Assembly: GCA_903854995.1 (NCBI GenBank)
Contig: CAINXS010000052.1
Span: 1-55,427 of the forward strand
Direction: 5' to 3'
Origin: Candidatus Moraniibacteriota bacterium
GTDB lineage: Bacteria; Patescibacteriota; Minisyncoccia; Moranbacterales; UBA1568
Length of the DNA: 55,427 nucleotides
Below, piece by piece: positions 96 to 55,427 of this stretch. The translations under genes were made by a program, and so were the position numbers. The notes beneath the pieces were generated by a model. It was not told where the DNA came from. It saw nothing but the letters and a program-made list of their open reading frames with translations, and did no database searches. The number at the start of each line of letters is the position of its first letter. Position 1 is the stretch's first letter.

Positions 96-668
96 CCCCA
101 GCTTCGCTGGGGGTTTATAGATTAAATCAACTACCCCGCGGCAAGCCGCGAGGTATGTCCGCTAGAACAACGTCGGTTGTTCTTGGTGGAGCCTCACGTA
201 CTCTCTCTCGATCCCCTGGTTTTTTACATACTCCGTTACCGCACTTTCACTTCTGTTTCTCCCTACGGTTGAGATATAATGATCGTCCGTCCAGAATTCT
301 CCTCCCCACAGTTGTTTTTTGACTTCAGGCACTCGGGCGAAGATTTCTCGCGCCGTGATACTTTTCACGATTCGAGCAATCTTGGTCGGAGCATAGGTCG
401 GTACCGATTGGATGAGAAAGTGGACATGGTCATTGTCCGTTCCTATTTCGAGAAAGTGCATCTGATAACGAAGGGCTATATCTTGACAGACATCCTTCAT
501 GACCCCATATCCACTTTCTCGGAGATGACTGCCCGGCGATACTTTGCGGGACAGACGAGGTGATAGATGAGAACGCTGACGTTGTGTCTTTTGTGGATGT
601 ATATGCTCATCGTTCCATTATACGTCTCTCTCCTGCTTCGCAGGAGTTATTCGCGGCAAGCCGCGAGG
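96..668 (-). mobile_element. IS200/IS605-family element: tnpA flanked by paired subterminal hairpins
   Basis: The same 17-mer CGCGGCAAGCCGCGAGG (itself a CGCGGC-AA-GCCGCG hairpin) occurs at 137-153 and 652-668 in direct orientation. Each copy is preceded by a TTC-loop hairpin (96-112 CCCCAGC-TTC-GCTGGGG; 630-646 CTCCTGC-TTC-GCAGGAG). IS200/IS605 ends are known to be same-strand hairpins. The exact ends were not determined. Confidence 0.6.
162..610 (-). pseudogene. tnpA: IS200/IS605 Y1 (HUH) transposase TnpA, split by a one-nucleotide frame change near 497-500
   Basis: The C-terminal part is ORF 162-500, carrying the HVHFLIQ HUH motif. The N-terminal 37 aa (MSIYIHKRHNVSVLIYHLVCPAKYRRAVISEKVDMGS) read from 610 to 497 in the adjacent frame. 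The two frames meet at GGGGTCATGA. Confidence 0.75.
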
Positions 669-4330: not shown

Positions 4331-4690
4331 TCATTTCACAAGTGTTTTCTTTAACCCACCAAGCTGATTTGAAATCCCATCTATCCGTTTCATCGCCTCA
4401 TCATACCGATCTTCTTGAACCATCCCGTTTAATTTCAACGCATCCATTGCCGCCATTGTCTCATATAGGGAACGGAGCGAAATATTCAGAAAACGATTCA
4501 GTTCCTTATCAGTCGTTTTTCCGCTTCCTTCCGCGATATTAAGCGCTACCGACAAGGCGGCACGGATCATCTGGCTACCTATTTCGAAACGGAATTCTTT
4601 CGGTAGATCCTTAACAATTTTCAGAACAAGGGAAAAGAGCTCCTGCGAATCATTGTATACTTTCCATTTCCTGAACCGAAATTTCTCCAT
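4331..4690 (-). CDS. four-helix-bundle protein (23S rRNA intervening-sequence protein / DGR Avd family)
   Basis: The 119-aa product carries KWKVY...QMIRAALSVALNIAEGSGKTTDKELNRFLNISLRSLYE, characteristic of this family. Confidence 0.85.
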   Translation of the reverse strand: MEKFRFRKWKVYNDSQELFSLVLKIVKDLPKEFRFEIGSQMIRAALSVALNIAEGSGKTTDKELNRFLNISLRSLYETMAAMDALKLNGMVQEDRYDEAMKRIDGISNQLGGLKKTLVK

Positions 4691-4730: not shown

Positions 4731-6268
<1,538 letters not shown>

Positions 6269-6318
6269 GCGTCTCAAACAGCTATCATCTTGCTTGATTC
6301 TCTCTCTTCCTTTCAAAT

Positions 6319-6354
6319 CGACTCATGTCCCCGGACCGTTCCGGAAACAAATAG
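6319..6354. other. conserved small hairpin motif, copy A (CGACTCATG-N3-CCGGA-CCGT-TCCGG-AA-N-CAAAT)
   Basis: It aligns with copy B at 9139-9178. The stem carries compensatory changes between the two copies. Confidence 0.5.
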
Positions 6355-6420
6355 TTGATTTGACAGATGAATCAGGAATAAGGAGTTTTGAATCATGCCT
6401 CAGACCATCTTGTCCCCGTT

Positions 6421-6500
6421 TTTTCTTTATTCTTAATTCCTGTATCTTTGTTCTTCATTCCCAATTCCTCATTCCTTATTCTTTATTCATAATTCTAATT
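6421..6500. repeat. ATTCC/ATTCTT-type word block (right arm, inverted relative to 6192-6268), overlapping the atpG stop
   Basis: The sequence ttttctttattcttaattcctgtatctttgttcttcattcccaattcctcattccttattctttattcataattc was read directly. Confidence 0.85.
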
Positions 6501-7384: not shown

Positions 7385-7414
7385 ACTTACAACTCACGAC
7401 TTATAACTGACAAC
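7385..7414. repeat. ACAACT-type word block (left arm of the atpG-atpA spacer)
   Basis: The sequence acttacaactcacgacttataactgacaacc was read directly. Confidence 0.8.
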
Positions 7415-7449
7415 CGCCCCCACCCACCCTGTCCCAATCCCTATCCCCG
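7415..7449 (-). other. six consecutive G3-5 tracts on the mRNA-sense strand (G-quadruplex-type motif) between the two arms
   Basis: The minus strand reads GGGG ATA GGG ATT GGG ACA GGG T GGG T GGGGG. Confidence 0.6.
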
Positions 7450-7487
7450 TTGTAAGTTGTTGGTTGTAAGTTGTTCGTTTTCCTTCG
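7450..7487. repeat. GTTGT-type word block (right arm, inverted relative to 7385-7414)
   Basis: The sequence ttgtaagttgttggttgtaagttgttcg was read directly. Confidence 0.8.
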
Positions 7488-8984: not shown

Positions 8985-8991
8985 AACGTTT

Positions 8992-9071
8992 CAGGAATGA
9001 CGAATAAAGAATAAAACAGAGAGAATCATAAATGAAGCAAAAAGAACCAGACGATAAGAATAGGAAATCAT
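8992..9071. repeat. GGAAT/GAATA-type word block (left arm upstream of atpA)
   Basis: The sequence caggaatgacgaataaagaataaaacagagagaatcataaatg...gataagaataggaaatcatg was read directly. Confidence 0.8.
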
Positions 9072-9100
9072 GCCCGGATGCCTCGTTTGGCTTCGGCATC

Positions 9101-9138
9101 ATTCCTTATTCTACATTCTTTTTTCTTCCTTTTCATTC
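9101..9138. repeat. ATTCC-type word block (right arm, inverted)
   Basis: The sequence attccttattctacattcttttttcttccttttcattc was read directly. A GATGCC...GGCATC hairpin (9077-9100) sits between the arms. Confidence 0.8.
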
Positions 9139-9178
9139 CGACTCATGCCGCCCGAGCCGTCTCGGAAGGCAAATCGTA
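9139..9178. other. conserved small hairpin motif, copy B (CGACTCATG-N4-CCGAG-CCGT-CTCGG-AA-NN-CAAAT)
   Basis: It aligns with 6319-6354. The loop CCGT is identical, and the stem differs by paired changes. Confidence 0.5.
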
Positions 9179-9259
9179 GGAGTGAGGGTTGGTTCTACGT
9201 TTCTAATTTTAACTTTTAGGATGAAGGGAATAATCGCTTTTTAGAGCCGCTTTCAAGTA

Positions 9260-9288
9260 TTGACTTTTTTGATTTTTTGGATTATAAT
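9260..9288 (+). promoter_or_regulatory. sigma70-type promoter TTGACT-17 nt-TATAAT
   Basis: The -35 box is at 9260-9265 and the -10 box at 9283-9288. The spacer is exactly 17 nt. It lies about 45 nt upstream of the ATG at 9333. Confidence 0.7.
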
Positions 9289-9332
9289 GTGTGGTTAAAT
9301 GTTCCTTCCCAATCAGCAAAACACATAACATC

Positions 9333-9665
9333 ATGAAAAGAGCTTATCTCATATCTTTTGTTGTCCGCTCCGTTGACAACGCCGACCGAATCATGTCCGC
9401 CTATGTTTATAGCGGCATCGACGTTCAAACAGTCCCAGGACTCAACACCGTTAAACAAACGATAGCTAAGTCCGGGCTTGTAATGTCGAATGCTTACCCC
9501 GCCGTCCACATCATCGCCTGCCAGCTCCTAAACGATTCTCCCGAATCATGCGAGGAGCAGCTATCTCAGCTGATTGAAGTCCGAGAACTCGTAAAATACG
9601 AGACCGGACTTCCGTGTCAATTTAGAGATCCAGTCATTGACTTGGAAAAGCAAGTCATGTACTGA
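9333..9665 (+). CDS. hypothetical protein (110 aa) in the AT-rich islet, antisense to the atp operon
   Basis: The ORF is bracketed by a consensus promoter and an intrinsic terminator. I recognise no family for it. Confidence 0.55.
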   Translation: MKRAYLISFVVRSVDNADRIMSAYVYSGIDVQTVPGLNTVKQTIAKSGLVMSNAYPAVHIIACQLLNDSPESCEEQLSQLIEVRELVKYETGLPCQFRDPVIDLEKQVMY

Positions 9666-9935
9666 CGACGCGACAAAATTCACAGCAAACCTATCTGGTT
9701 CAAAACCAGATAGGTTTTTTATTCCCCGTTTTTCAAATCTACTATCAGGGCTCGATATACTCGGATCCTGAATGGTGTATTCAAAAGGGATACGTATTGT
9801 CGAATAACTAGGATGGTTTAATGGCTCATTCTTTTTTTCCGTCATCGCGAGGATTCCGTCCTCGGAATCCGTGGCGATCCAGACATTCAGACGGTTCCGG
9901 GTTTCCTGGATTGCTGCGCTCATCCATCGCTCCAT
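9561..9935 (-). CDS. hypothetical ORF (MERWMSAAIQ...); doubtful
   Basis: The frame is open in an AT-rich region. However, it reads through the terminator hairpin and overlaps the 3' end of the plus-strand gene by about 105 nt. Confidence 0.25.
   Translation of the reverse strand: MERWMSAAIQETRNRLNVWIATDSEDGILAMTEKKNEPLNHPSYSTIRIPFEYTIQDPSISSPDSRFEKRGIKNLSGFEPDRFAVNFVASSVHDLLFQVNDWISKLTRKSGLVFYEFSDFNQLR
9687..9722 (+). terminator. rho-independent terminator
   Basis: AAACCTATCTGG-TTCAAAA-CCAGATAGGTTT has a 12-bp stem and is followed by TTTTTTATT. Confidence 0.85.
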
Positions 9936-9975
9936 TTGAGCGACAGATTCGCTCGCAATGACATTGTACGTTTTT

Positions 9976-10088
9976 CGTTGTCGGTTGTCAGTTTCCTGTT
10001 GTGAGTTTTCCATTCCCTGTTGTTCGTTGCTCGCTATAAGTTGTAAGTTTCCTCATCCGTTGTCAGTTGTTTGTTGTTAGTTGTAGGT
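9976..10088. repeat. long GTTGT-type word block overlapping the atpH stop
   Basis: The DNA reads cgttgtcggttgtcagtttcctgttgtgag...ataagttgtaagtttcctcatccgttgtcagttgtttgttgttagttgtagg. Confidence 0.85.
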
Positions 10089-10484: not shown

Positions 10485-10522
10485 TGCCGGAAATGATTGT
10501 TCTATTGCCTCATTGCTCAATT

Positions 10523-10634
10523 GTCATCCCGGGCGAGTCTTCGAGTCGAGGGATCTGCGTATGCCTTCGGCAGATTCCTCCGCTCCGCTCCGTTTCACTC
10601 CTCCCGCATGCGCGGGACTTTGGGTCGGAATGAC
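10523..10634. mobile_element. MITE-like element, GTCATCCCG...CGGAATGAC termini, family 1
   Basis: It has terminal inverted repeats and an internal GGATCTGC...GCAGATTCC hairpin. It is closely related to 53360-53464. It lies between atpF and atpH. Confidence 0.8.
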
Positions 10635-10642
10635 AAATTCTC

Positions 10643-11134: not shown

Positions 11135-11236
11135 ACGGTTTGTGACGTTGCTTACGACTCACGACTTCCGGCCGGCACGCCCTCCCCCGCGGGAGGGAAC
11201 CGTGCCGGACACCGGTCGTTCTTCGTACGCCGAAGA

Positions 11237-12382: not shown

Positions 12383-12411
12383 ATTCTACGACGAAAAACC
12401 GGAACCGTCAA
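12383..12411 (-). promoter_or_regulatory. candidate atp operon promoter TTGACG-17 nt-TAGAAT
   Basis: The -35 box is at 12406-12411 and the -10 box at 12383-12388 (minus strand). The spacer is 17 nt. It lies about 55 nt upstream of the atpB ATG. Confidence 0.5.
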
Positions 12412-13730: not shown

Positions 13731-13746
13731 CTTACAACTTACAACC
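13731..13746. repeat. ACAACTT heptamers directly upstream of the tatD start
   Basis: The sequence cttacaacttacaacc was read directly. Confidence 0.8.
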
Positions 13747-18894: not shown

Positions 18895-20175
18895 CCCAAT
18901 CTTCAGATCCAGCATTTTCTCGAGTTTCGCCTTCTTCTTGGCATCCTGCGGACCGACGATCGCGAGGTTCAGTCGGTCGTTCCGGAAGATGTCCTGCGCG
19001 ACACGGAGTACGTCGTCCGCCGTAACCCGACTAATCATCCGGACCTTTTCCTTCGGTAGTACGATCTCGTTGCGCAGGACTTCCTGCGAGACGAGATATT
19101 CCGCCACGTCGTCGGACCCCTCGAGCCCCATCGCCATCTTGCCCTTCAGATACTCCTTGGCCTTGCGGAGTTCGTCCTCATCGACACCCTCGGTCGCGAT
19201 TTTCCGATATTCGTCGAGGATGACCAAGATCGCCTTCTCGAGATTCTCATGTTCCACGCCGCACTGCGTCGCGAGAAATCCGGCGTCATGGAAGGCTTCC
19301 ACTTCGGTGCGGACCATGTAGGCGAGCCCGCGCCGTTCGCGGACCTCCATGAAGAGCCGGCTCGACATGCCGCCGCCGAGGATGACTGAGAGGACCGCGA
19401 GTGCGTACCGGTCGGGATGATACATGTCGAAGGTCCGGACCCCGAGCAGGAAGTGCGTCTGGTCGGTCTTTTTCTTCCGGACCGAAAGTTCGGGCCCGGA
19501 CTGCCCGTCGGACGCCCTTTTGAACTCCGGACGGATTCCCTGCGCGATGACACCGAACCGTTCTGCGACCGCCTTCCCGGCCGCCTTCGGATTGATATTT
19601 CCCGCGATACCGACCACGACGTTCCCCGACACATATCCCCGTCTCATGTACCGCACGAAGTCTGACCGCCGAAACGCGCGGATATTCTCCTTGGGCCCCG
19701 CGATATCCCATCCAAGCGGCGTATCGCCGTAGAGGAGCGCCTCCCAGTCGTCGCCCACCTTGCGCATCGGCATGTCTTCGTACATGTTGATCTCCTGGAG
19801 GATCGTCCCCCGCTCGCGGTCGATCTCCTCCTGGTCCAGCTTGGCATTCAGGAACATATCCGAAACTACGTCGAGTGCGGTGTCGAAATGATGCGCCTCC
19901 ACCTTGGCGTAGTAGCCGGTATACTCCTTGCCGGTGAACGCGTTGTAGTCGGCGCCGATCGAGTCGAGTTCGCGCGTGATGTCGAGCGCGGTCGGTCGCT
20001 TTTCCGTGCCCTTGAACATCATATGCTCGAGGAAGTGTGCGATGCCGTTCTCCCTGCGCGACTCGAAGCGCGACCCGACACCGGTCATGACGAGCACCGT
20101 CACCGTCCCCGTCTCCGTCATCGGAGCGAGTATCACGCGCAGACCGTTCGGGAGGGTTGTTTTCTTGAATTTCAT
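18886..20175 (-). CDS. M16-family (pitrilysin-like) zinc peptidase
   Basis: The HFLEHMMF inverted zincin motif is present. Confidence 0.9.
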   Translation of the reverse strand: MKFKKTTLPNGLRVILAPMTETGTVTVLVMTGVGSRFESRRENGIAHFLEHMMFKGTEKRPTALDITRELDSIGADYNAFTGKEYTGYYAKVEAHHFDTALDVVSDMFLNAKLDQEEIDRERGTILQEINMYEDMPMRKVGDDWEALLYGDTPLGWDIAGPKENIRAFRRSDFVRYMRRGYVSGNVVVGIAGNINPKAAGKAVAERFGVIAQGIRPEFKRASDGQSGPELSVRKKKTDQTHFLLGVRTFDMYHPDRYALAVLSVILGGGMSSRLFMEVRERRGLAYMVRTEVEAFHDAGFLATQCGVEHENLEKAILVILDEYRKIATEGVDEDELRKAKEYLKGKMAMGLEGSDDVAEYLVSQEVLRNEIVLPKEKVRMISRVTADDVLRVAQDIFRNDRLNLAIVGPQDAKKKAKLEKMLDLKIGDR

Positions 20176-20193
20176 ACCGTTACGGAAACCGAA

Positions 20194-21177
20194 TTATACT
20201 TCACTGATGACATCAAATCCCTTCAGGCTACCCACTATCGAAAGACAGATGACCTTTTTCGCGACACCCTGCTCTTTCAGCTTTCGTGCCGTCTCATTGA
20301 AGGTCGCCCCGGACCCTACCGCATCGTCTATCAAAAGCACCGTTCCGAACGACCGCCGATCGGAAACGAATATACCGGCTCGTGCGTTTTGTATGCGATC
20401 TTCCAACGAGGACAACGTCTTCTGCGGCACGCGCACCGCTCCGACGATCTTTTCCAACCCGATTTCCGGGAGCGGACTCCGGACCGTTTTCTGCAACCCG
20501 TCCATGAGTTGCACTGTTCGTTTTACCGTAGGCGGAATATATCCGATCGCTTCGATATGATGTTTCGAGATTATCCGCTCCACATACGGCAAAACCCGCT
20601 CCGCAAGTTCCCGTATCATTCTCTTGTCCTGACTCTGCTTCGCGTACAAGAGCAACTGTCCCAGTTTCGTTTTCCCAAAAATCTCCCACGCGTAGAAATC
20701 GACGTAATATACGGCATCGACGACATCGTCATCACCGAACGTCTTCCGAAATTTTTTCGATCCGTCCAGCAGTCCGCCCTTCCGCATGTCAGCATATTTT
20801 TTCGACAGCGACACGTACTCTGCGGCTTTCTTCGTGACATCGAAGCGCCGATCCGCACACCAACGTTCGAATGCGAGCATACCCTCCAAACGCTCCCCCT
20901 GCGGCGTGACCAGGAGAAACTTTTCATCTATGATCGCCTTCGTTGCCGCATCGAGGACAGGAATATCGCGCGCGGATACGTCACGTACCGTATCAGCCGG
21001 AACATATACCACCCTCGGGGCCGACCCGATCTTCATGATAAGCCCTTCTTCGGCCAAAGCCAACAGATGCCGATGAATCATCGCCCGCTCGATATCCACT
21101 TCATCGAGCAGGTCCGAAACGGTCACCTGCTTCCTCTGTCGTATGTAGTCCAGTATCTTTTCCTTATTGGAAGCCAT
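20194..21177 (-). CDS. winged-helix DNA-binding domain fused to a phosphoribosyltransferase (ComF-like) domain
   Basis: The N-terminus has ILDYIRQRKQVTVSDLLDEVDIERAMIHRHLLALAEEGLI. The C-terminus has the PRPP-binding loop VLLIDDAVGSGATF. Confidence 0.7.
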   Translation of the reverse strand: MASNKEKILDYIRQRKQVTVSDLLDEVDIERAMIHRHLLALAEEGLIMKIGSAPRVVYVPADTVRDVSARDIPVLDAATKAIIDEKFLLVTPQGERLEGMLAFERWCADRRFDVTKKAAEYVSLSKKYADMRKGGLLDGSKKFRKTFGDDDVVDAVYYVDFYAWEIFGKTKLGQLLLYAKQSQDKRMIRELAERVLPYVERIISKHHIEAIGYIPPTVKRTVQLMDGLQKTVRSPLPEIGLEKIVGAVRVPQKTLSSLEDRIQNARAGIFVSDRRSFGTVLLIDDAVGSGATFNETARKLKEQGVAKKVICLSIVGSLKGFDVISEV

Positions 21178-21190
21178 ATTTCGTACATAA

Positions 21191-21217
21191 GTATACAATA
21201 TATAGTATACTGTATAC
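21191..21217. promoter_or_regulatory. three GTATAC palindromic hexamers just upstream of the wHTH-PRTase start (possible operator)
   Basis: GTATAC occurs at 21191, 21205 and 21212 within AT-rich TATA-like sequence. Confidence 0.35.
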
Positions 21218-21254
21218 TTTATATCCGGTCAACCTCCCCCGAACGGGCCGTCTT

Positions 21255-21363
21255 AGAATCTCTCTCAAATCTCATGTCGAGAGAAAATTCCGAAATTTCG
21301 GAGTTTTCTCCGGCAAGCGAAGTCTTCGGCTTATGCACCGCGGTGAGATTTGAGAGAGATTCT
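21255..21363. repeat. 20-bp perfect inverted repeat (AGAATCTCTCTCAAATCTCA / TGAGATTTGAGAGAGATTCT) enclosing a 69-bp structured core
   Basis: Read directly. The core contains the CCGAAATTTCGG palindrome. Confidence 0.85.
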
Positions 21364-21555
21364 TACTGTTCCTTCAGTAGTCCGCTTCCTTCGGACAAAG
21401 TGCCTTGTGTATCTCTTCTTTCTTGAATATCGCGATCTGCGTCGGCTGCGCTTCTTTCGTTATCATTTATACGGACCGCACGTTCCCCAGGGTGATATTC
21501 TTGAATTTCATATCGTTACGGGAGAACAAGAAATGAGGAACTACGAATCAGGGAT

Positions 21556-22233
21556 TTATTCTTCATCCATATGCTGGATGGCCTTCTCAGTTGCGTAGGT
21601 ATGCATTCTTGATATCTCGTTAATCCCCATAGCACTTTTTAATTCAGAAAAGAAAGATTCATAACCATTCCCATTTTCTTCTATGAGTTCATCCAAAGCA
21701 CCATATACATCATCAATCATCTTTTTCCGCTTTTCTTCATCCTCTGGAGAATGAGAGTGCTTTTCATAGAAGTTCAATTTTTGAGCATCTGCCATGAAAG
21801 ATATATGCTTCATTTCAATTTTTTCCACCTTCTTCAAATCCTCCTCAGAAAGCCACTTCCCGTAATTGATTCGAAACTGGATTAATTCATGTATATACCC
21901 GTTAAACTCTTTGCCCTTCTCACCTGTCGGATCTCCATTTATCAAAATCCAAAGCCTGATACGAATCAGTTGATCAACATATTTCTCATAGAACTCAGCC
22001 TTCTTTTCTAGAATCAGTTTTGAAAGTGGTGAATTGACACCTAGATCAAACAAATGCTGATTTTTTTGTTTATGAGAATCGATAAACAAGCCAACAATTA
22101 ACGCTGCGATAATCGGAGAGAAAATACCGAAAATCTCCAACCTTTCTTTCCCGATAAGTAAAAGTCCGAGAAATATCCCGAGTAATATCGATATTATGCA
22201 ACACAATAGCCACGATATCACCTTTGTTGTCAT
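21556..22233 (-). CDS. hypothetical membrane protein (two N-terminal TM helices plus a helical domain) in an AT-rich islet
   Basis: A clean 225-aa ORF with a marked AT-rich composition compared with both neighbours. Confidence 0.7.
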   Translation of the reverse strand: MTTKVISWLLCCIISILLGIFLGLLLIGKERLEIFGIFSPIIAALIVGLFIDSHKQKNQHLFDLGVNSPLSKLILEKKAEFYEKYVDQLIRIRLWILINGDPTGEKGKEFNGYIHELIQFRINYGKWLSEEDLKKVEKIEMKHISFMADAQKLNFYEKHSHSPEDEEKRKKMIDDVYGALDELIEENGNGYESFFSELKSAMGINEISRMHTYATEKAIQHMDEE

Positions 22234-22242
22234 ATCTTTCCG

Positions 22243-23652
22243 CTATTTCAAATTCTCCACCAAATACGCCCTCAACTCAGCAACCGGGATGCGGATCTGT
22301 TCCATGGTATCGCGGTCACGGACGGTGACAGTGTCCTTGAGCGAGGCGTCTCCGCCGAGTCCGATCGTGTCGAAGTCGACCGTCACGCAGTACGGCGTGC
22401 CGATCTCGTCTTGCCGGCGATAGCGCTTGCCGACGTTTCCGTTGTCGTCGTATTCGGTAGCGAAGTCGCGTTTCAACATATCGAACACCTCGCGCGCCTT
22501 GGCAGTCAGTTCCGGCTTGTTGCGGAGAAGCGGGAAGACCGCGACCTTGACCGGCGCGAGTTTCTTGGGGAATTTCATTACGACGCGGACATCGCCTTCC
22601 TTCACCTCCTCTTCGGTATACGCATCGGTCAAGACGGCAAGGAAGGTACGGTCGACGCCGACGGACGTCTCGACGATCCACGGGACGTACTTCTCCCCCG
22701 TCTGCGGGTCGCGGTACGAAAGGTCGACGCCCGAGAACTTTGAATGCTGGGTGAGATCGTAGTCGCTCCGATTATGGACGCCTTCGAGCTCCTTGAAGCC
22801 GAACGGGAACTTGTACTCGATGTCCCACGCGGCCTTGGCGTAGAAGACGAGGTTCTCATGCTGATGCCAATGCAAATTCTCCGCCTTGATTCCGAGGTCG
22901 ATATAGTATTGCCATCGCTTCGCCCGCCACTCTTCATAGAACTCGGCGGCCGTGTCGGGATGAACAAAAAATTGCATCTCCATCTGTTCGAACTCCCGCT
23001 TCCGGAAGATGAACTGTCGCGCGGTGATCTCGTTTCGGAACGCCTTGCCGATCTGCGCGATACCGAACGGCACCTTCATGCGTGTCGAATCAAGCACGTT
23101 CTTGAAATTGACGTAGATGCCCTGACAGGTCTCACCGCGAAGATAGGTCGGCTCCTTGTCCCAATCCCCTGTGAAGTTACCCAGGTTGGATTTCACCAGT
23201 AGATTGAAACTCTTCGCCTCGGTGAAATCGTGACTCCCGCATTTCGGACACACCACCTTGTCCCGGTTCTCCGAAAAGAGCGCATTGATCTCCTCTTCGC
23301 TCATCTTCTCGTCGGCAAAGACGCCGACCTCTTCGAGAAGATGATCCACGCGTACGCGCGAGTGACATTTTTTGCACTCCGCCAAAGGATCGCTGAACCC
23401 GCCTACATGACCGGACGCCTGCCAGACCTTCGGATGCATGAAGATCGCGCTGTCCAGGCCCACGATATTCTCGTTGTCACGCACCATCGCCTGCCACCAG
23501 GCCTCGCGGATATTTCGTGCGAGTTCGACTCCGTATGGTCCGAAGTCGTACACCGCCGCGAACCCGCCGTAAATCTCCGAGCTCGGAAACACGAATCCGC
23601 GCCGTTTCGAGAGCGATACCAGCTTGTCCATCAGGTTTTCCACTTGAGCCAT
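22243..23652 (-). CDS. glyQS: glycyl-tRNA synthetase (class II, GlyQS type)
   Basis: FVFPSSEIYGG, class II motifs and a C-terminal anticodon-binding domain are present. The ATG at 23652 (MAQVENLMDKLV) is preferred. Confidence 0.93.
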   Translation of the reverse strand: MAQVENLMDKLVSLSKRRGFVFPSSEIYGGFAAVYDFGPYGVELARNIREAWWQAMVRDNENIVGLDSAIFMHPKVWQASGHVGGFSDPLAECKKCHSRVRVDHLLEEVGVFADEKMSEEEINALFSENRDKVVCPKCGSHDFTEAKSFNLLVKSNLGNFTGDWDKEPTYLRGETCQGIYVNFKNVLDSTRMKVPFGIAQIGKAFRNEITARQFIFRKREFEQMEMQFFVHPDTAAEFYEEWRAKRWQYYIDLGIKAENLHWHQHENLVFYAKAAWDIEYKFPFGFKELEGVHNRSDYDLTQHSKFSGVDLSYRDPQTGEKYVPWIVETSVGVDRTFLAVLTDAYTEEEVKEGDVRVVMKFPKKLAPVKVAVFPLLRNKPELTAKAREVFDMLKRDFATEYDDNGNVGKRYRRQDEIGTPYCVTVDFDTIGLGGDASLKDTVTVRDRDTMEQIRIPVAELRAYLVENLK

Positions 23653-23785
23653 AAATGTGTCGTTATAGAACTTCCTGCTCCCTTTTCGGAGGGGAGCTGT
23701 CGCGTCTTCGCGACTGAGGGGTGGAAGCGGTACCTTGTAAAACGCTCCATTTCCTTTCAAATCTAGCCCGATAAGAGTCAAAAGT

Positions 23786-23815
23786 AAAGAGGATGTCAGT
23801 TCTGACATCCTCTTT
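23786..23815 (-). terminator. hairpin downstream of pyrF (AAAGAGGATGTCAG-TTC-TGACATCCTCTTT)
   Basis: The stem is a perfect 14 bp. The T-tract on the minus strand is only moderate. Confidence 0.5.
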
Positions 23816-23874
23816 AACATCCCGAGATTTCCATCATACTCACCAACCCTTCGCCCTGATTTCAATCCCCTCCT

Positions 23875-37403: not shown

Positions 37404-37781
37404 TCAGACCTTCAGACGATCATTCGTATATTTTATCAGACTGTTGATTTCCTTCGGGAAAGAACTGAGGGCCATAAATGTCCGATCATAATCCTTTTGC
37501 TCAATCAGCTTCCTTCTCTTCGATTTCTCCAACCAATCCAATGACTCATATGAGGAAGCCCTCGCTATCCGATAAAAGAAGACTTTGTCTTTCTTCCCAT
37601 ATCGACCGAATCCCTCCGCAATATTGGCGGATATCGAATCAATAGCCCTCACGAACTGCGATCCGACCGTTTTTCGAGGAAAATCATCCCACTTTACGAC
37701 GATATCCCAAACTTCGTTCGAAAGTGAAAACGCGAGCCGATATGCGTTGATTTTGTTCAATGTCAGATATTCATCTCCCAT
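37404..37781 (-). CDS. four-helix-bundle protein (23S rRNA IVS protein / Avd family), second copy
   Basis: The 125-aa product carries AYRLAFSLSNEVW...QFVRAIDSISANIAEGFGRYGKKDKVFFYRIARASSYE. Confidence 0.85.
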   Translation of the reverse strand: MGDEYLTLNKINAYRLAFSLSNEVWDIVVKWDDFPRKTVGSQFVRAIDSISANIAEGFGRYGKKDKVFFYRIARASSYESLDWLEKSKRRKLIEQKDYDRTFMALSSFPKEINSLIKYTNDRLKV

Positions 37782-41595: not shown

Positions 41596-41994
41596 GGGGT
41601 TGTCTAGTTTCGACAGCGTGCTCTTTCAGAACCGGCAAGCCGATGCGGGGAGTCATCGAAAAAAATCCCCACATATGATATCTGCCAACATCACACAGAA
41701 AGTGAAGGCAGCGTTCGCCTCGGCGTTCGCCCCGTCCTTCGCTTCCGTTCTCGCCTAACTTCGGTTTGCGGAACCATCGGACCCCCGACGCCTGATACGG
41801 GAATTCCGGTGCCATACCATCAGGCGGACCAACAAGGGTCTTTCTTCCCTTCACTCTGTTGGCCCGGCATGAAAGGAAGCCCTGGAAAGATTTTCGTCGA
41901 TCTTTCCGCTTTTCAGGGAACCAAAGGTCGACTACGCTTGTAGAAGGTTCTGGAAGGATTCGTCTGGACATGGGTGCGATTCCCATCAACTCCA
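41596..41994 (+). ncRNA. ssrA: tmRNA (transfer-messenger RNA)
   Basis: The 5' end is GGGGUUGUCUAGUUUCGACAGCG. The 3' end is GGACAUGGGUGCGAUUCCCAUCAACUCCA. The acceptor GGGGUUG/CAACUCC includes the G3-U pair. The tag reading frame GCC AAC ... GCC TAA is at 41684-41758. The gene lies directly after smpB, and the terminal CCA is not encoded. Confidence 0.9.
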
Positions 41995-41996
41995 CA

Positions 41997-42048
41997 GGAA
42001 GCTGCCGAAGCTTCGAAAGCTTCTGAAGCTGCAATAGCTTTCGGAGCC
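41997..42048. repeat. GAAGCTT-type word block immediately 3' of tmRNA
   Basis: The sequence ggaagctgccgaagcttcgaaagcttctgaagctgcaatagctttcgg was read directly. Confidence 0.8.
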
Positions 42049-53468: not shown

Positions 53469-53584
53469 TGTTGTCAGTTGTTTGTTGTCAGTTGTTTGTT
53501 CCCCGTTGTCAGTTGTAAGTTGTGAGTTGTAAGTTCGTAATCGTCAGTCATTCTTCCGTTGTAAGTTGTCAGTTGTTTGTTATC
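53469..53584. repeat. long GTTGT-type word block from the MITE to the mnmA stop
   Basis: The sequence ttgtcagttgtttgttgtcagttgtttgttccccgttgtcagttgtaagttgtgagttgtaagttcg...gttgtaagttgtcagttgtttgttatc was read directly. Confidence 0.9.
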
Positions 53585-54709: not shown

Positions 54710-55427
54710 TCATCCGGCCTCGATCCCGTACGAATCCCCTACCCGCCTCCGCAAGCCGTACGTGTTCCCATATCGGAGCAGTCCGAGATACGACTGAACC
54801 GTTTCCGGCTTGCCGTTCTTCGCCTCCAAGTTTCGGAACATCCGCCGCTTCGTCGCCATGCGCAGGACACGATGATCCGGGAAGTGCACCCACCCGAGGA
54901 AGTCTACACCCGAAGCGACCGTCGCAATGAATACCTTGTCCGGGTGAAGCGTGAGCACAAGACGCGAGTCGAGAAACTCCCTTATTTTCGGAAGCATTGA
55001 TTCCAGTTCGCCCCTGTCTGGCGAGAGTATCACGAAGTCATCTGCATAGCGAATATAGTATTTCGCGCGTATCGTGTGCTTCATGAACCGGTCGAACTCG
55101 TTCAGATAGACGTTCGCGAGGAGCTGAGACGTCAGATTTCCGAGCGGGAGCCCCTTTCCCGGTTCCGTATGGAAACTCCCAACGATCTCCGCGAGCAGTC
55201 CGAGGATATCGCGATCCGGGATATGTTCGCGCAGGATGCGAAGTAGGATATCGTGGTCGATGGAGGCAAAGAATTTCTTTACGTCGCACTTCAGTACCCA
55301 CACGGTCCGAGAATGATTACGGGACACCTTCCTGGATAACTTCTGGAATCGATCAAGCGCCTTGTGAATCCCTTTTCCGTCCCGGCAAGTTAAGTGGTCG
55401 GGTTTGTCAAACACGATAGTGTCGACA
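54710..55427 (-). CDS. reverse transcriptase of the diversity-generating retroelement (DGR) type; N-terminus lies beyond the window
   Basis: Motifs present: VLKCDVKKFFASIDHDIL, GLPLGNLTSQLLANVYLNEFD (the [IL]GxxxSQ signature) and YIRYADDFVIL. The frame stays open to position 55427. Confidence 0.8.
   Translation of the reverse strand, partial: VDTIVFDKPDHLTCRDGKGIHKALDRFQKLSRKVSRNHSRTVWVLKCDVKKFFASIDHDILLRILREHIPDRDILGLLAEIVGSFHTEPGKGLPLGNLTSQLLANVYLNEFDRFMKHTIRAKYYIRYADDFVILSPDRGELESMLPKIREFLDSRLVLTLHPDKVFIATVASGVDFLGWVHFPDHRVLRMATKRRMFRNLEAKNGKPETVQSYLGLLRYGNTYGLRRRVGDSYGIEAG

Follow-up and report, generated by a model that had tools for sequence, protein, structure and literature searches.

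An F-type ATP synthase operon lies on the minus strand of a 55-kb stretch of DNA (the window) from a lake-water metagenomic genome of an uncultured member of Candidatus Moranbacteria, a group of the candidate phyla radiation (CPR/Patescibacteria). Within this operon, atpH and atpA are separated by a spacer of 1092 nt (10076-8985) that holds a small unit of opposite orientation: a promoter, an open reading frame (ORF) for 110 amino acids, called ORF110 here, and a terminator. This unit is one of several cassettes of the same build, bracketed by copies of a structured hairpin, in the atp spacers of related Moranbacteria. In the order of transcription, the operon region comprises the following genes.

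12328-11567, minus strand: atpB
11488-11237, minus strand: atpE
11134-10643, minus strand: atpF
10520-10077, minus strand: atpH (delta/OSCP; PF00213, E 1e-15), upstream of the spacer
8984-7488, minus strand: atpA (alpha subunit; 74% identity to atpA of related CPR genomes), downstream of the spacer
7373-6495, minus strand: atpG
6186-4789, minus strand: atpD
4690-4331, minus strand: 23S_rRNA_IVP four-helix-bundle gene
4302-3856, minus strand: atpC

The spacer is visibly poorer in GC than its neighbours, with values of 0.40-0.49 over 9050-9950 compared with 0.58-0.66 in atpA and atpH. The low GC that led the initial annotation to describe an AT-rich islet was thus found, but it is not special to this spot: every spacer, several accessory genes and the non-core DNA of the genome in general are AT-rich. 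At 12383-12411 on the minus strand, about 55 nt ahead of atpB, lies TTGACG-17-TAGAAT (10/12), which is likely the operon promoter and indicates that the organism uses sigma-70-type promoters.

The antisense unit consists of three parts, all of them present where the initial annotation had placed them.

9260-9288, plus strand: sigma-70-type promoter TTGACT-17-TATAAT, a consensus match (11/12)
9333-9665, plus strand: ORF110 (110 aa), the cassette cargo; the sole open frame, with 3-9 stops in each of the other five frames
9687-9723, plus strand: intrinsic terminator; its stem of 14 bp is perfect and closes a 3-nt loop (9687-9717), and TTTTATT follows

This promoter is the single best match of the whole window, and a score of at least 11/12 arises in 2.2% of 1000 dinucleotide shuffles of the spacer; transcription would start near 9295. 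The terminator stem was matched in none of 1000 shuffles, the longest shuffled stem being 10 bp. Promoter, ORF and terminator stand in the correct order, far beyond chance, which argues for reading the islet as a cassette. The feature is real, and its anatomy, opposite to the operon, is that expected of the autonomous antisense transcription unit that had been proposed.

The unit points to higher coordinates, toward atpH and away from atpA, and is convergent with atpBEFH and divergent from atpA. The earlier suggestion that it could produce antisense RNA to atpA does not survive this geometry: because the promoter is directed at atpH, a transcript that ran on would lie antisense to that gene, in front of which the terminator stands. 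The terminator hairpin is also unidirectional. On the operon strand no T-run follows the stem, here and likewise in the units of two related loci (L082 and L108), so operon transcription should not stop there.

ORF110 shows the codon-position pattern GC1>GC3>GC2 (0.56/0.34/0.53 at positions 1, 2 and 3) that is also the pattern of the genuine low-GC genes of the window. Its overall GC is 0.48 and its GC3 0.53, compared with 0.59-0.61 and 0.65-0.75 in neighbouring and native genes. The length of the ORF is marginal by itself, as an open frame of at least 124 codons occurs in 5% of shuffles (p ~0.05). The product is acidic (isoelectric point 5.0) and has no transmembrane (TM) segment, its maximum 19-residue hydropathy being 1.28. 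The unknown family that had been assigned to it was borne out by every search. No relative was found in a word-indexed search of 5.8 billion clustered proteins or by exhaustive phmmer over 1.84 billion representatives; Pfam, NCBIfam, PHROGs and PADLOC gave no match, and neither tblastn on phage genomes nor IMG/VR returned anything. Judged from its sequence, ORF110 is a strict orphan and a predicted lineage-specific protein gene. The window contains no second copy of the islet.

Comparison of the atpH-atpA junction in related genomes shows how much of the spacer is extra DNA. The relatives are ranked here by the identity of their atpH to that of the window.

L082, atpH 78% (closest): gap of 1156 nt that holds an ORF for 79 aa in antisense to the operon
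L106 and L107, atpH 62%: gaps of 29 and 20 nt
L084, atpH 61%: gap of 101 nt, consisting of one purine/pyrimidine hairpin leader (5397-5497)
L108, atpH 57%: gap of 465 nt, no gene
L086, atpH 56%: gap of 427 nt, no gene
L110, atpH 53%: gap of 102 nt

Most relatives therefore have 20-102 nt at this junction, and more distant CPR genomes have tens of nucleotides. The ORF110 gene is at the junction in none of the compared relatives. The spacers of the window and of L082 are built of colinear conserved blocks around a cargo that cannot be aligned. Shared blocks include the ACAAC block after atpH, a 90-nt block past the terminator (78% identity), the promoter (TTGACT-17-TATAAT in L082 as well), a 50-nt block (49/50) and the atpA leader. 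This leader is itself a defined structure:

8985-9135, minus strand: atpA leader hairpin, in which a loop joins a purine-rich arm to a pyrimidine-rich arm that ends at the ATG, with inverted repeats I1 and I2; fold z -2.8

The same type of hairpin also precedes atpD and makes up the whole L084 spacer. In these leaders the purine-rich (GAATAAGGAAT-type) arm pairs with the pyrimidine-rich arm (8985-9135, 6187-6300 and 6390-6494 in the window). A Shine-Dalgarno sequence is not evident before either atpA or atpD.

A relative that co-occurs in the lake has at most about 200 nt for two spacers together. Its atpH-atpA region is short, and its atpG-atpD spacer carries near-copies of the window promoter (33/36), of the terminator-side gamma block (21/21) and of the promoter-side alpha block (43/45), two border types described below. 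These contig pieces suggest a further, seventh cassette in that spacer. The lake relative was considered as a closer, islet-free sister, which would have indicated a recent insertion, and was rejected: its nucleotide distance from the window roughly equals that of L082, and its other spacer carries pieces of a cassette. It also has 541 nt between atpE and atpF, compared with 100 nt in the window (11137-11236), which indicates that different operon spacers have expanded in different lineages. A scan of JGI metagenomes with atpH found no relative, and the window region is identical in three lake samples.

The borders of the unit are formed by a structured hairpin of roughly 55-80 nt, named A here. 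This element was found first upstream of both atpA and atpD, and the block that follows the terminator aligns with it. RNAalifold folds A as a two-helix hairpin with 19 pairs, 10 of which show compensatory changes. In the alignment, which was fitted to the model, 94% of cells pair and covariation exceeds that of all 500 shuffles and all slid controls. The frequent G-U pairs place the structure on the operon strand, as RNA or single-stranded DNA. A covariance model of the element (R1) found 23 copies in 10 loci (window, L082, L084, L086, L108, L110, L112, L113, L115 and L117), all on the operon strand and all in atp spacers; neither the remainder of the window nor distant CPR loci yielded one. 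The three copies of the window are as follows.

9718-9801, minus strand: gamma-type A, the terminator-side border of the cassette (R1 63 bits, E 2e-13); 78% identical to L082 4122-4206 and 88% to L113 1609-1668
9118-9200, minus strand: alpha-type A, the promoter-side border at the head of the atpA leader (R1 79.5 bits); 49/50 identical to L082 and 90% over 130 nt to L113 1093-1222 of the other spacer (atpG-atpD)
6298-6378, minus strand: solo delta-type A in the atpG-atpD spacer, an unoccupied site (R1 77.6 bits)

All solo copies (7/7) are of the delta type (…TTTCCGGANNGGTCCGGGGACATGAGTCGATTTGAA), the alpha type (…CCTTCCGAGACGGCTCGGGCGGCATGAGTCGGAATGAAA) occurs only on the promoter side of cassettes (5/5), and the gamma type (…CAGGAT…ATCCTGATAGTAGATTTGAAAAA) only on their terminator side (3/3). 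Across this Moranbacteria clade, A sits 120-220 nt upstream of atpA and atpD, where it may act in the processing, stability or regulation of the atp operon mRNA. A role of A as a sigma-70 promoter for atpA or atpD was set aside, as no consistent -10 was found, only a 9/12 ATGAAA-17-TAGAAT in some alpha modules. Searched with Rfam, the spacer gave no match either at the gathering threshold or with E relaxed to 1, and A likewise matches no Rfam family; a 19-nt gamma motif gave chance matches only in JGI metagenome scans and IMG/VR.

Delimited by these elements, the window unit spans 9118-9801, wider than the islet first described on one side and narrower on the other. The claim of an insertion in the initial annotation accordingly holds as regards extra DNA relative to most relatives and fails as regards the borders, since the hairpin elements at 9718-9801 and 9118-9200 lie partly beyond them.

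Six sequenced units share this build, all of them antisense and all in the atpH-atpA or atpG-atpD spacers of related Moranbacteria.

Window cassette, atpH-atpA: ORF110, acidic, no TM segment
L082 (=L113) cassette, atpH-atpA: 79 aa
L112 cassette, atpH-atpA: 78 aa, 60% identical to the 79-aa protein
L113 c1 cassette, atpG-atpD: 87 aa, in tandem with c2
L113 c2 cassette, atpG-atpD: 73 aa, 12/12 consensus promoter
L108 (=L117/L118) cassette, atpG-atpD: 62 aa

Each cassette is bracketed by two direct copies of A on the operon strand. Read along that strand, the layout is A, an A-run, the terminator hairpin (reverse complement), the cargo (reverse complement), the promoter (reverse complement), 0-100 nt, a second A, the leader hairpin and the ATG of atpA or atpD. 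A promoter-like site is present in all six; five score 10-12 of 12, and that of L112 is weak. The cargo ATG lies 44-61 nt past the -10 in every case, and the window, L082 and L108 cassettes share the -35, the -10 and the bases around them (TATTGACTT...TA[T/A]AAT) as well as the distance to the ATG. The hairpin at the terminator position differs in each of the six, and the junction of T-run and A that follows it is the same. Five of the six cargos are basic proteins of 62-87 aa with two TM segments. The cargos are mutually unrelated except for the L082/L112 pair, whose dN/dS of 0.25 indicates that cassette cargo is real protein-coding sequence. The L082 and L108 cargos are alike by eye, and a kinship between them was rejected because BLASTP shows no similarity.

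The tandem cassettes of L113 are informative about the ends. The atpG-atpD spacer of this locus keeps the orthologous delta A in mid-spacer, 81% identical to the window atpG-atpD leader, and the alpha modules of c1 and c2 are 90-91% identical to the alpha module of the window atpA leader, in the other spacer; the gamma block is 88% identical. The atp coding DNA of these genomes is about 77-90% identical, compared with 88-91% for the shared cassette borders. Restriction of subtypes to one side, together with border identity above that of coding DNA, suggests that cassette ends travel with cassettes between spacers and genomes. No description of such cassettes was found in the searchable literature, and this family of hairpin-flanked cassettes, which takes up the theme of the autonomous accessory cassette and has defined borders, is to that extent previously undescribed.

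Another recurrent occupant of these spacers is the DUF559 (endonuclease-like) gene, found in operon orientation in the atpG-atpD spacer of L084 (8060-8491), L110 (8366-8722), L115 (7092-7448) and L117 (6479-6835). In L108, a DUF559 gene in operon orientation (1423-1770) lies upstream of TatD.

The interpretation favoured here, with reasonable though far from complete confidence, is to read the islet as a moron-like cassette for an accessory gene, seated in the atpA leader. The cassette is probably mobile. Its functional core would be a strong constitutive sigma-70-type promoter, ORF110 and a one-way terminator, antisense to the atp operon. ORF110 would be expressed constitutively and independently of the operon, the terminator would keep antisense transcription from entering atpH, and the flanking A hairpins would insulate the neighbouring cistrons. 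Operon polymerase would pass through the unit to atpA, and head-on transcription together with RNA duplexes would exact some cost; over 9295-9720, convergent transcription and the duplex would probably lower atpAGDC expression or uncouple it from that of atpBEFH. Cassettes could spread and swap cargo by recombination or by single-strand transposition at A, with the enzyme supplied in trans.

A broader proposal is advanced only tentatively. It envisages a class of non-autonomous, hairpin-bounded, promoter-carrying cassettes of CPR bacteria that specifically colonise atpA and atpD leaders, move between spacers and genomes, line up in arrays and swap their cargo. Recombination or transposition would use the alpha, gamma and delta forms of A as ends, and the operon mRNA might exert antisense control over a cargo of mostly small membrane proteins.

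Several observations weigh against the accessory-cassette interpretation. As regards mobility, there is no recombinase or transposase in or adjoining the cassette, and the end hairpins of the sole Y1 (IS200-like) transposase gene of the window (162-500), which is apparently frameshifted, are of another kind; such enzymes do exist in the genome, and no link to A follows from this. Neither an empty-site allele nor a circle junction was seen in the assembled contigs, which are identical in three samples, and the window and L082 may share one old insertion. The comparison loci were fetched via atp genes, so that restriction of A and of cassettes to atp spacers was tested only on about 50 kb of other window DNA and on short flanks. 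As regards the product, ORF110 has no comparator, which leaves the anatomy of the unit to carry its coding status. Its single-sequence AlphaFold2 model has a pLDDT of 39 and no confident fold, and a clear Shine-Dalgarno sequence was not found, although native genes here also do without one. The acidic protein without a TM segment is the odd one out beside the basic two-TM cargos elsewhere. RNA runs covering the region were not found.

The orphan status of ORF110 also fits the view that the product is an RNA: a cis-antisense transcript of about 430 nt that tunes or splits atpBEFH and atpAGDC through transcriptional interference and duplex cleavage, with incidental ORFs. What is conserved, namely promoter, terminator position, orientation and site rather than cargo, speaks for such a transcript, and the plus-strand RNA is predicted to be unusually structured (z -7.1), much of this from the terminator hairpin. 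This explanation is nevertheless considered unlikely. It has to account for purifying selection on the L082/L112 pair as protein, for one clean ORF per cassette with its ATG at the regular distance from the -10, and for five coherent two-TM proteins among six cargos; Rfam offers no match even at E=1, and most relatives do without such a unit.

Small, basic two-TM cargos under near-consensus promoters, antisense within an essential and highly transcribed operon, bring to mind addiction modules. In a type-I-toxin-antitoxin-like arrangement, the atp operon mRNA would serve as the antisense antidote and the cargo would be expressed when operon transcription falls; the repeat-bounded build would recall that of Ldr/Rdl and Ibs/Sib in E. 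coli. ORF110 itself, acidic and without a TM segment, does not fit, the cargos (62-110 aa) are longer than typical type I toxins, PADLOC, Pfam and NCBIfam gave no match, and a dedicated promoter for a small antisense RNA was not found, which makes this arrangement quite improbable. A similarly low probability is assigned to an inert relic, either a decayed old insertion or chance signals in AT-rich junk between repeats, neither transcribed nor translated. The failure to find RNA runs over the region, an orphan ORF without a fold whose length 5% of shuffles equal, and spacers that are crowded with repeats throughout the genome are all compatible with decay or chance. Against it stand the 11/12 promoter (2.2% of shuffles), the ORF and the perfect 14-bp terminator (0/1000) in the right order, the same architecture with intact ORFs in five other sequenced cassettes, and the identity of the region in three lake samples.

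The remainder of the spacer, between the gamma element and atpH, contains further features that lie wholly or partly outside the cassette.

9561-10013, minus strand: 150-aa ORF (120 or 150 aa depending on the gene finder)
9841-9963, minus strand: closed multi-hairpin repeat GTCAT...ATGAC, fold -63 kcal/mol, z -5.1, outside the cassette
9976-10088: ACAACT/GTTGT heptamer block directly after the atpH stop codon, outside the cassette

The minus-strand ORF, already called doubtful in the initial annotation, exists and is probably spurious, as judged from its sequence. It crosses the 3' end of ORF110, the terminator, the gamma element and the GTCAT repeat, has no family match in Pfam, PHROGs, PADLOC or NCBIfam, and shows a weak codon-position GC signal. 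In the closest relative, L082, it is not conserved, and only its internal gamma element aligns. The 55-kb record annotates this ORF and not ORF110, and the locus thus shows gene callers in disagreement. A GTCAT…ATGAC-bounded relative of the repeat at 9841-9963 is located at 10521-10636 in the atpF-atpH spacer, and related GTCATTCCGACC elements are present in L082.

The heptamer motif GTTGTNAGTT has 28 matches in the window, compared with 0.19 expected by chance. Its blocks lie at 1233-1305, 4305-4328/4739-4794, 7405-7472, 9984-10082, 13736-13745 and 53470-53574; some are inverted pairs (the atpA-atpG hairpin; the arms around the four-helix-bundle gene) and others are unpaired. It had been supposed that the insertion displaced an inverted partner of the block after atpH. 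The same unpaired block follows atpH in L086, L108, L082 and L112, with and without a cassette, which speaks against such a displacement.

Other genes of the window deserve brief mention. Two low-GC (0.42-0.43) 23S_rRNA_IVP/four-helix-bundle genes are found on the minus strand, at 4331-4690 and 37404-37781. The former lies between atpD and atpC in operon orientation, within inverted GTTGTAAGTT arms, and represents a second, different kind of insertion. At the window edge, 54710-55414 (minus strand) encodes a reverse-transcriptase domain protein (RVT_1, E 6e-22); taken together with the Avd-like four-helix-bundle genes, it may be a sign of a diversity-generating retroelement or of a group II intron. 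With a GC of 0.36, the minus-strand gene at 21556-22233 has the lowest value in the window. It encodes 225 aa with an N-terminal TM region and has no Pfam match; a weak R1 match (23 bits) lies inside it at 21819-21889. It is flanked by a 512-aa gene without a Pfam match (19888-21426) and by a class II aminoacyl-tRNA synthetase gene (22243-23865). A transfer-messenger RNA gene is located at 41596-41997 on the plus strand (Rfam 117 bits, tag peptide ANITQKVKAAFASAFAPSFASVLA). An IS200/IS605-type element occupies about 100-670 on the minus strand, with the Y1 tnpA at 162-500 (PF01797, E 7.5e-25), apparently frameshifted, an upstream fragment reaching to about 612, and a CGCGGCAAGCCGCG hairpin repeated directly at its two ends (132-155 and 650-672).

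Little is known of how the small, streamlined genomes of CPR/Patescibacteria acquire genes. Here an essential and normally compact operon appears to tolerate mini-genes that face backward and would be expressed on their own, at two defined sites in its leaders. Should the cassettes prove mobile, they would provide a simple, tractable system for the entry and turnover of orphan genes in ultra-small bacteria, and the locus would permit study of how convergent transcription is tolerated or exploited inside an ATP synthase operon.

Four known systems share features with these cassettes. IS200/IS605-family elements with their non-autonomous derivatives (palindrome-associated transposable elements, PATEs), and REP elements with RAYT transposases, resemble them in the similar imperfect hairpins at both ends on one strand (gamma or delta and alpha A). 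The cassettes, like PATEs, have no terminal inverted repeats and no internal transposase, and their mobilisation would occur in trans. They differ in that the CGCGGCAAGCCGCG end hairpins of the IS200-like element are unlike A, with R1 finding no A there, and in that solo copies of A stand at orthologous positions of the leaders, whereas excision of the precise IS200 type would leave no such copy behind. Ldr/Rdl, Ibs/Sib and Hok/Sok are type I toxin-antitoxin loci in repeat modules. With these the cassettes have in common small hydrophobic cargos, strong promoters, a complementary transcript on the other strand and repeated modules. Their antisense partner, unlike that of type I loci, would be the operon mRNA and not a dedicated small RNA; the operon offers the sole convincing opposing transcript, and the minus strand has weak promoter-like sites at 9620-9593 and 9136-9108. 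The cargos are also longer, with two TM segments, and the window cargo is predicted to be soluble and acidic.

An integron gene cassette consists of an ORF and an attC hairpin site, is inserted at attI or attC by IntI, and is promoterless, being expressed from Pc. The units described here are likewise small single-gene cassettes with interchangeable cargo, split by strand-specific direct hairpins, and L113 holds a tandem array of two. No IntI, attI or Pc was found, nor any integrase or recombinase domain in the 30 large and several small window ORFs scanned with Pfam, and by eye no attC core sites are recognisable in A. A structured, strand-specific hairpin borders every cassette. Unlike integron cassettes, each unit has its own promoter and terminator, and the host sites are operon leaders.

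Phage morons, a concept of Hendrix and Juhala, are autonomous promoter-gene-terminator units that lie between genes adjacent in related phages and are often of deviant composition. The window unit likewise has its own consensus-matching sigma-70-type promoter and its own intrinsic terminator, lies between genes that abut in relatives (L084, L106/107, L110 and distant CPR genomes) and differs in composition from its neighbours, though all non-core DNA of the genome is AT-rich; unrelated cargo varies among genomes. Unlike a moron, the cassette lies in a CPR housekeeping operon and not in a phage or prophage, among atp, tRNA synthetase and other housekeeping genes and with no PHROG match. To our knowledge, morons have no defined structured ends, whereas these cassettes are always antisense, bounded by direct structured hairpins and confined to two leader sites.

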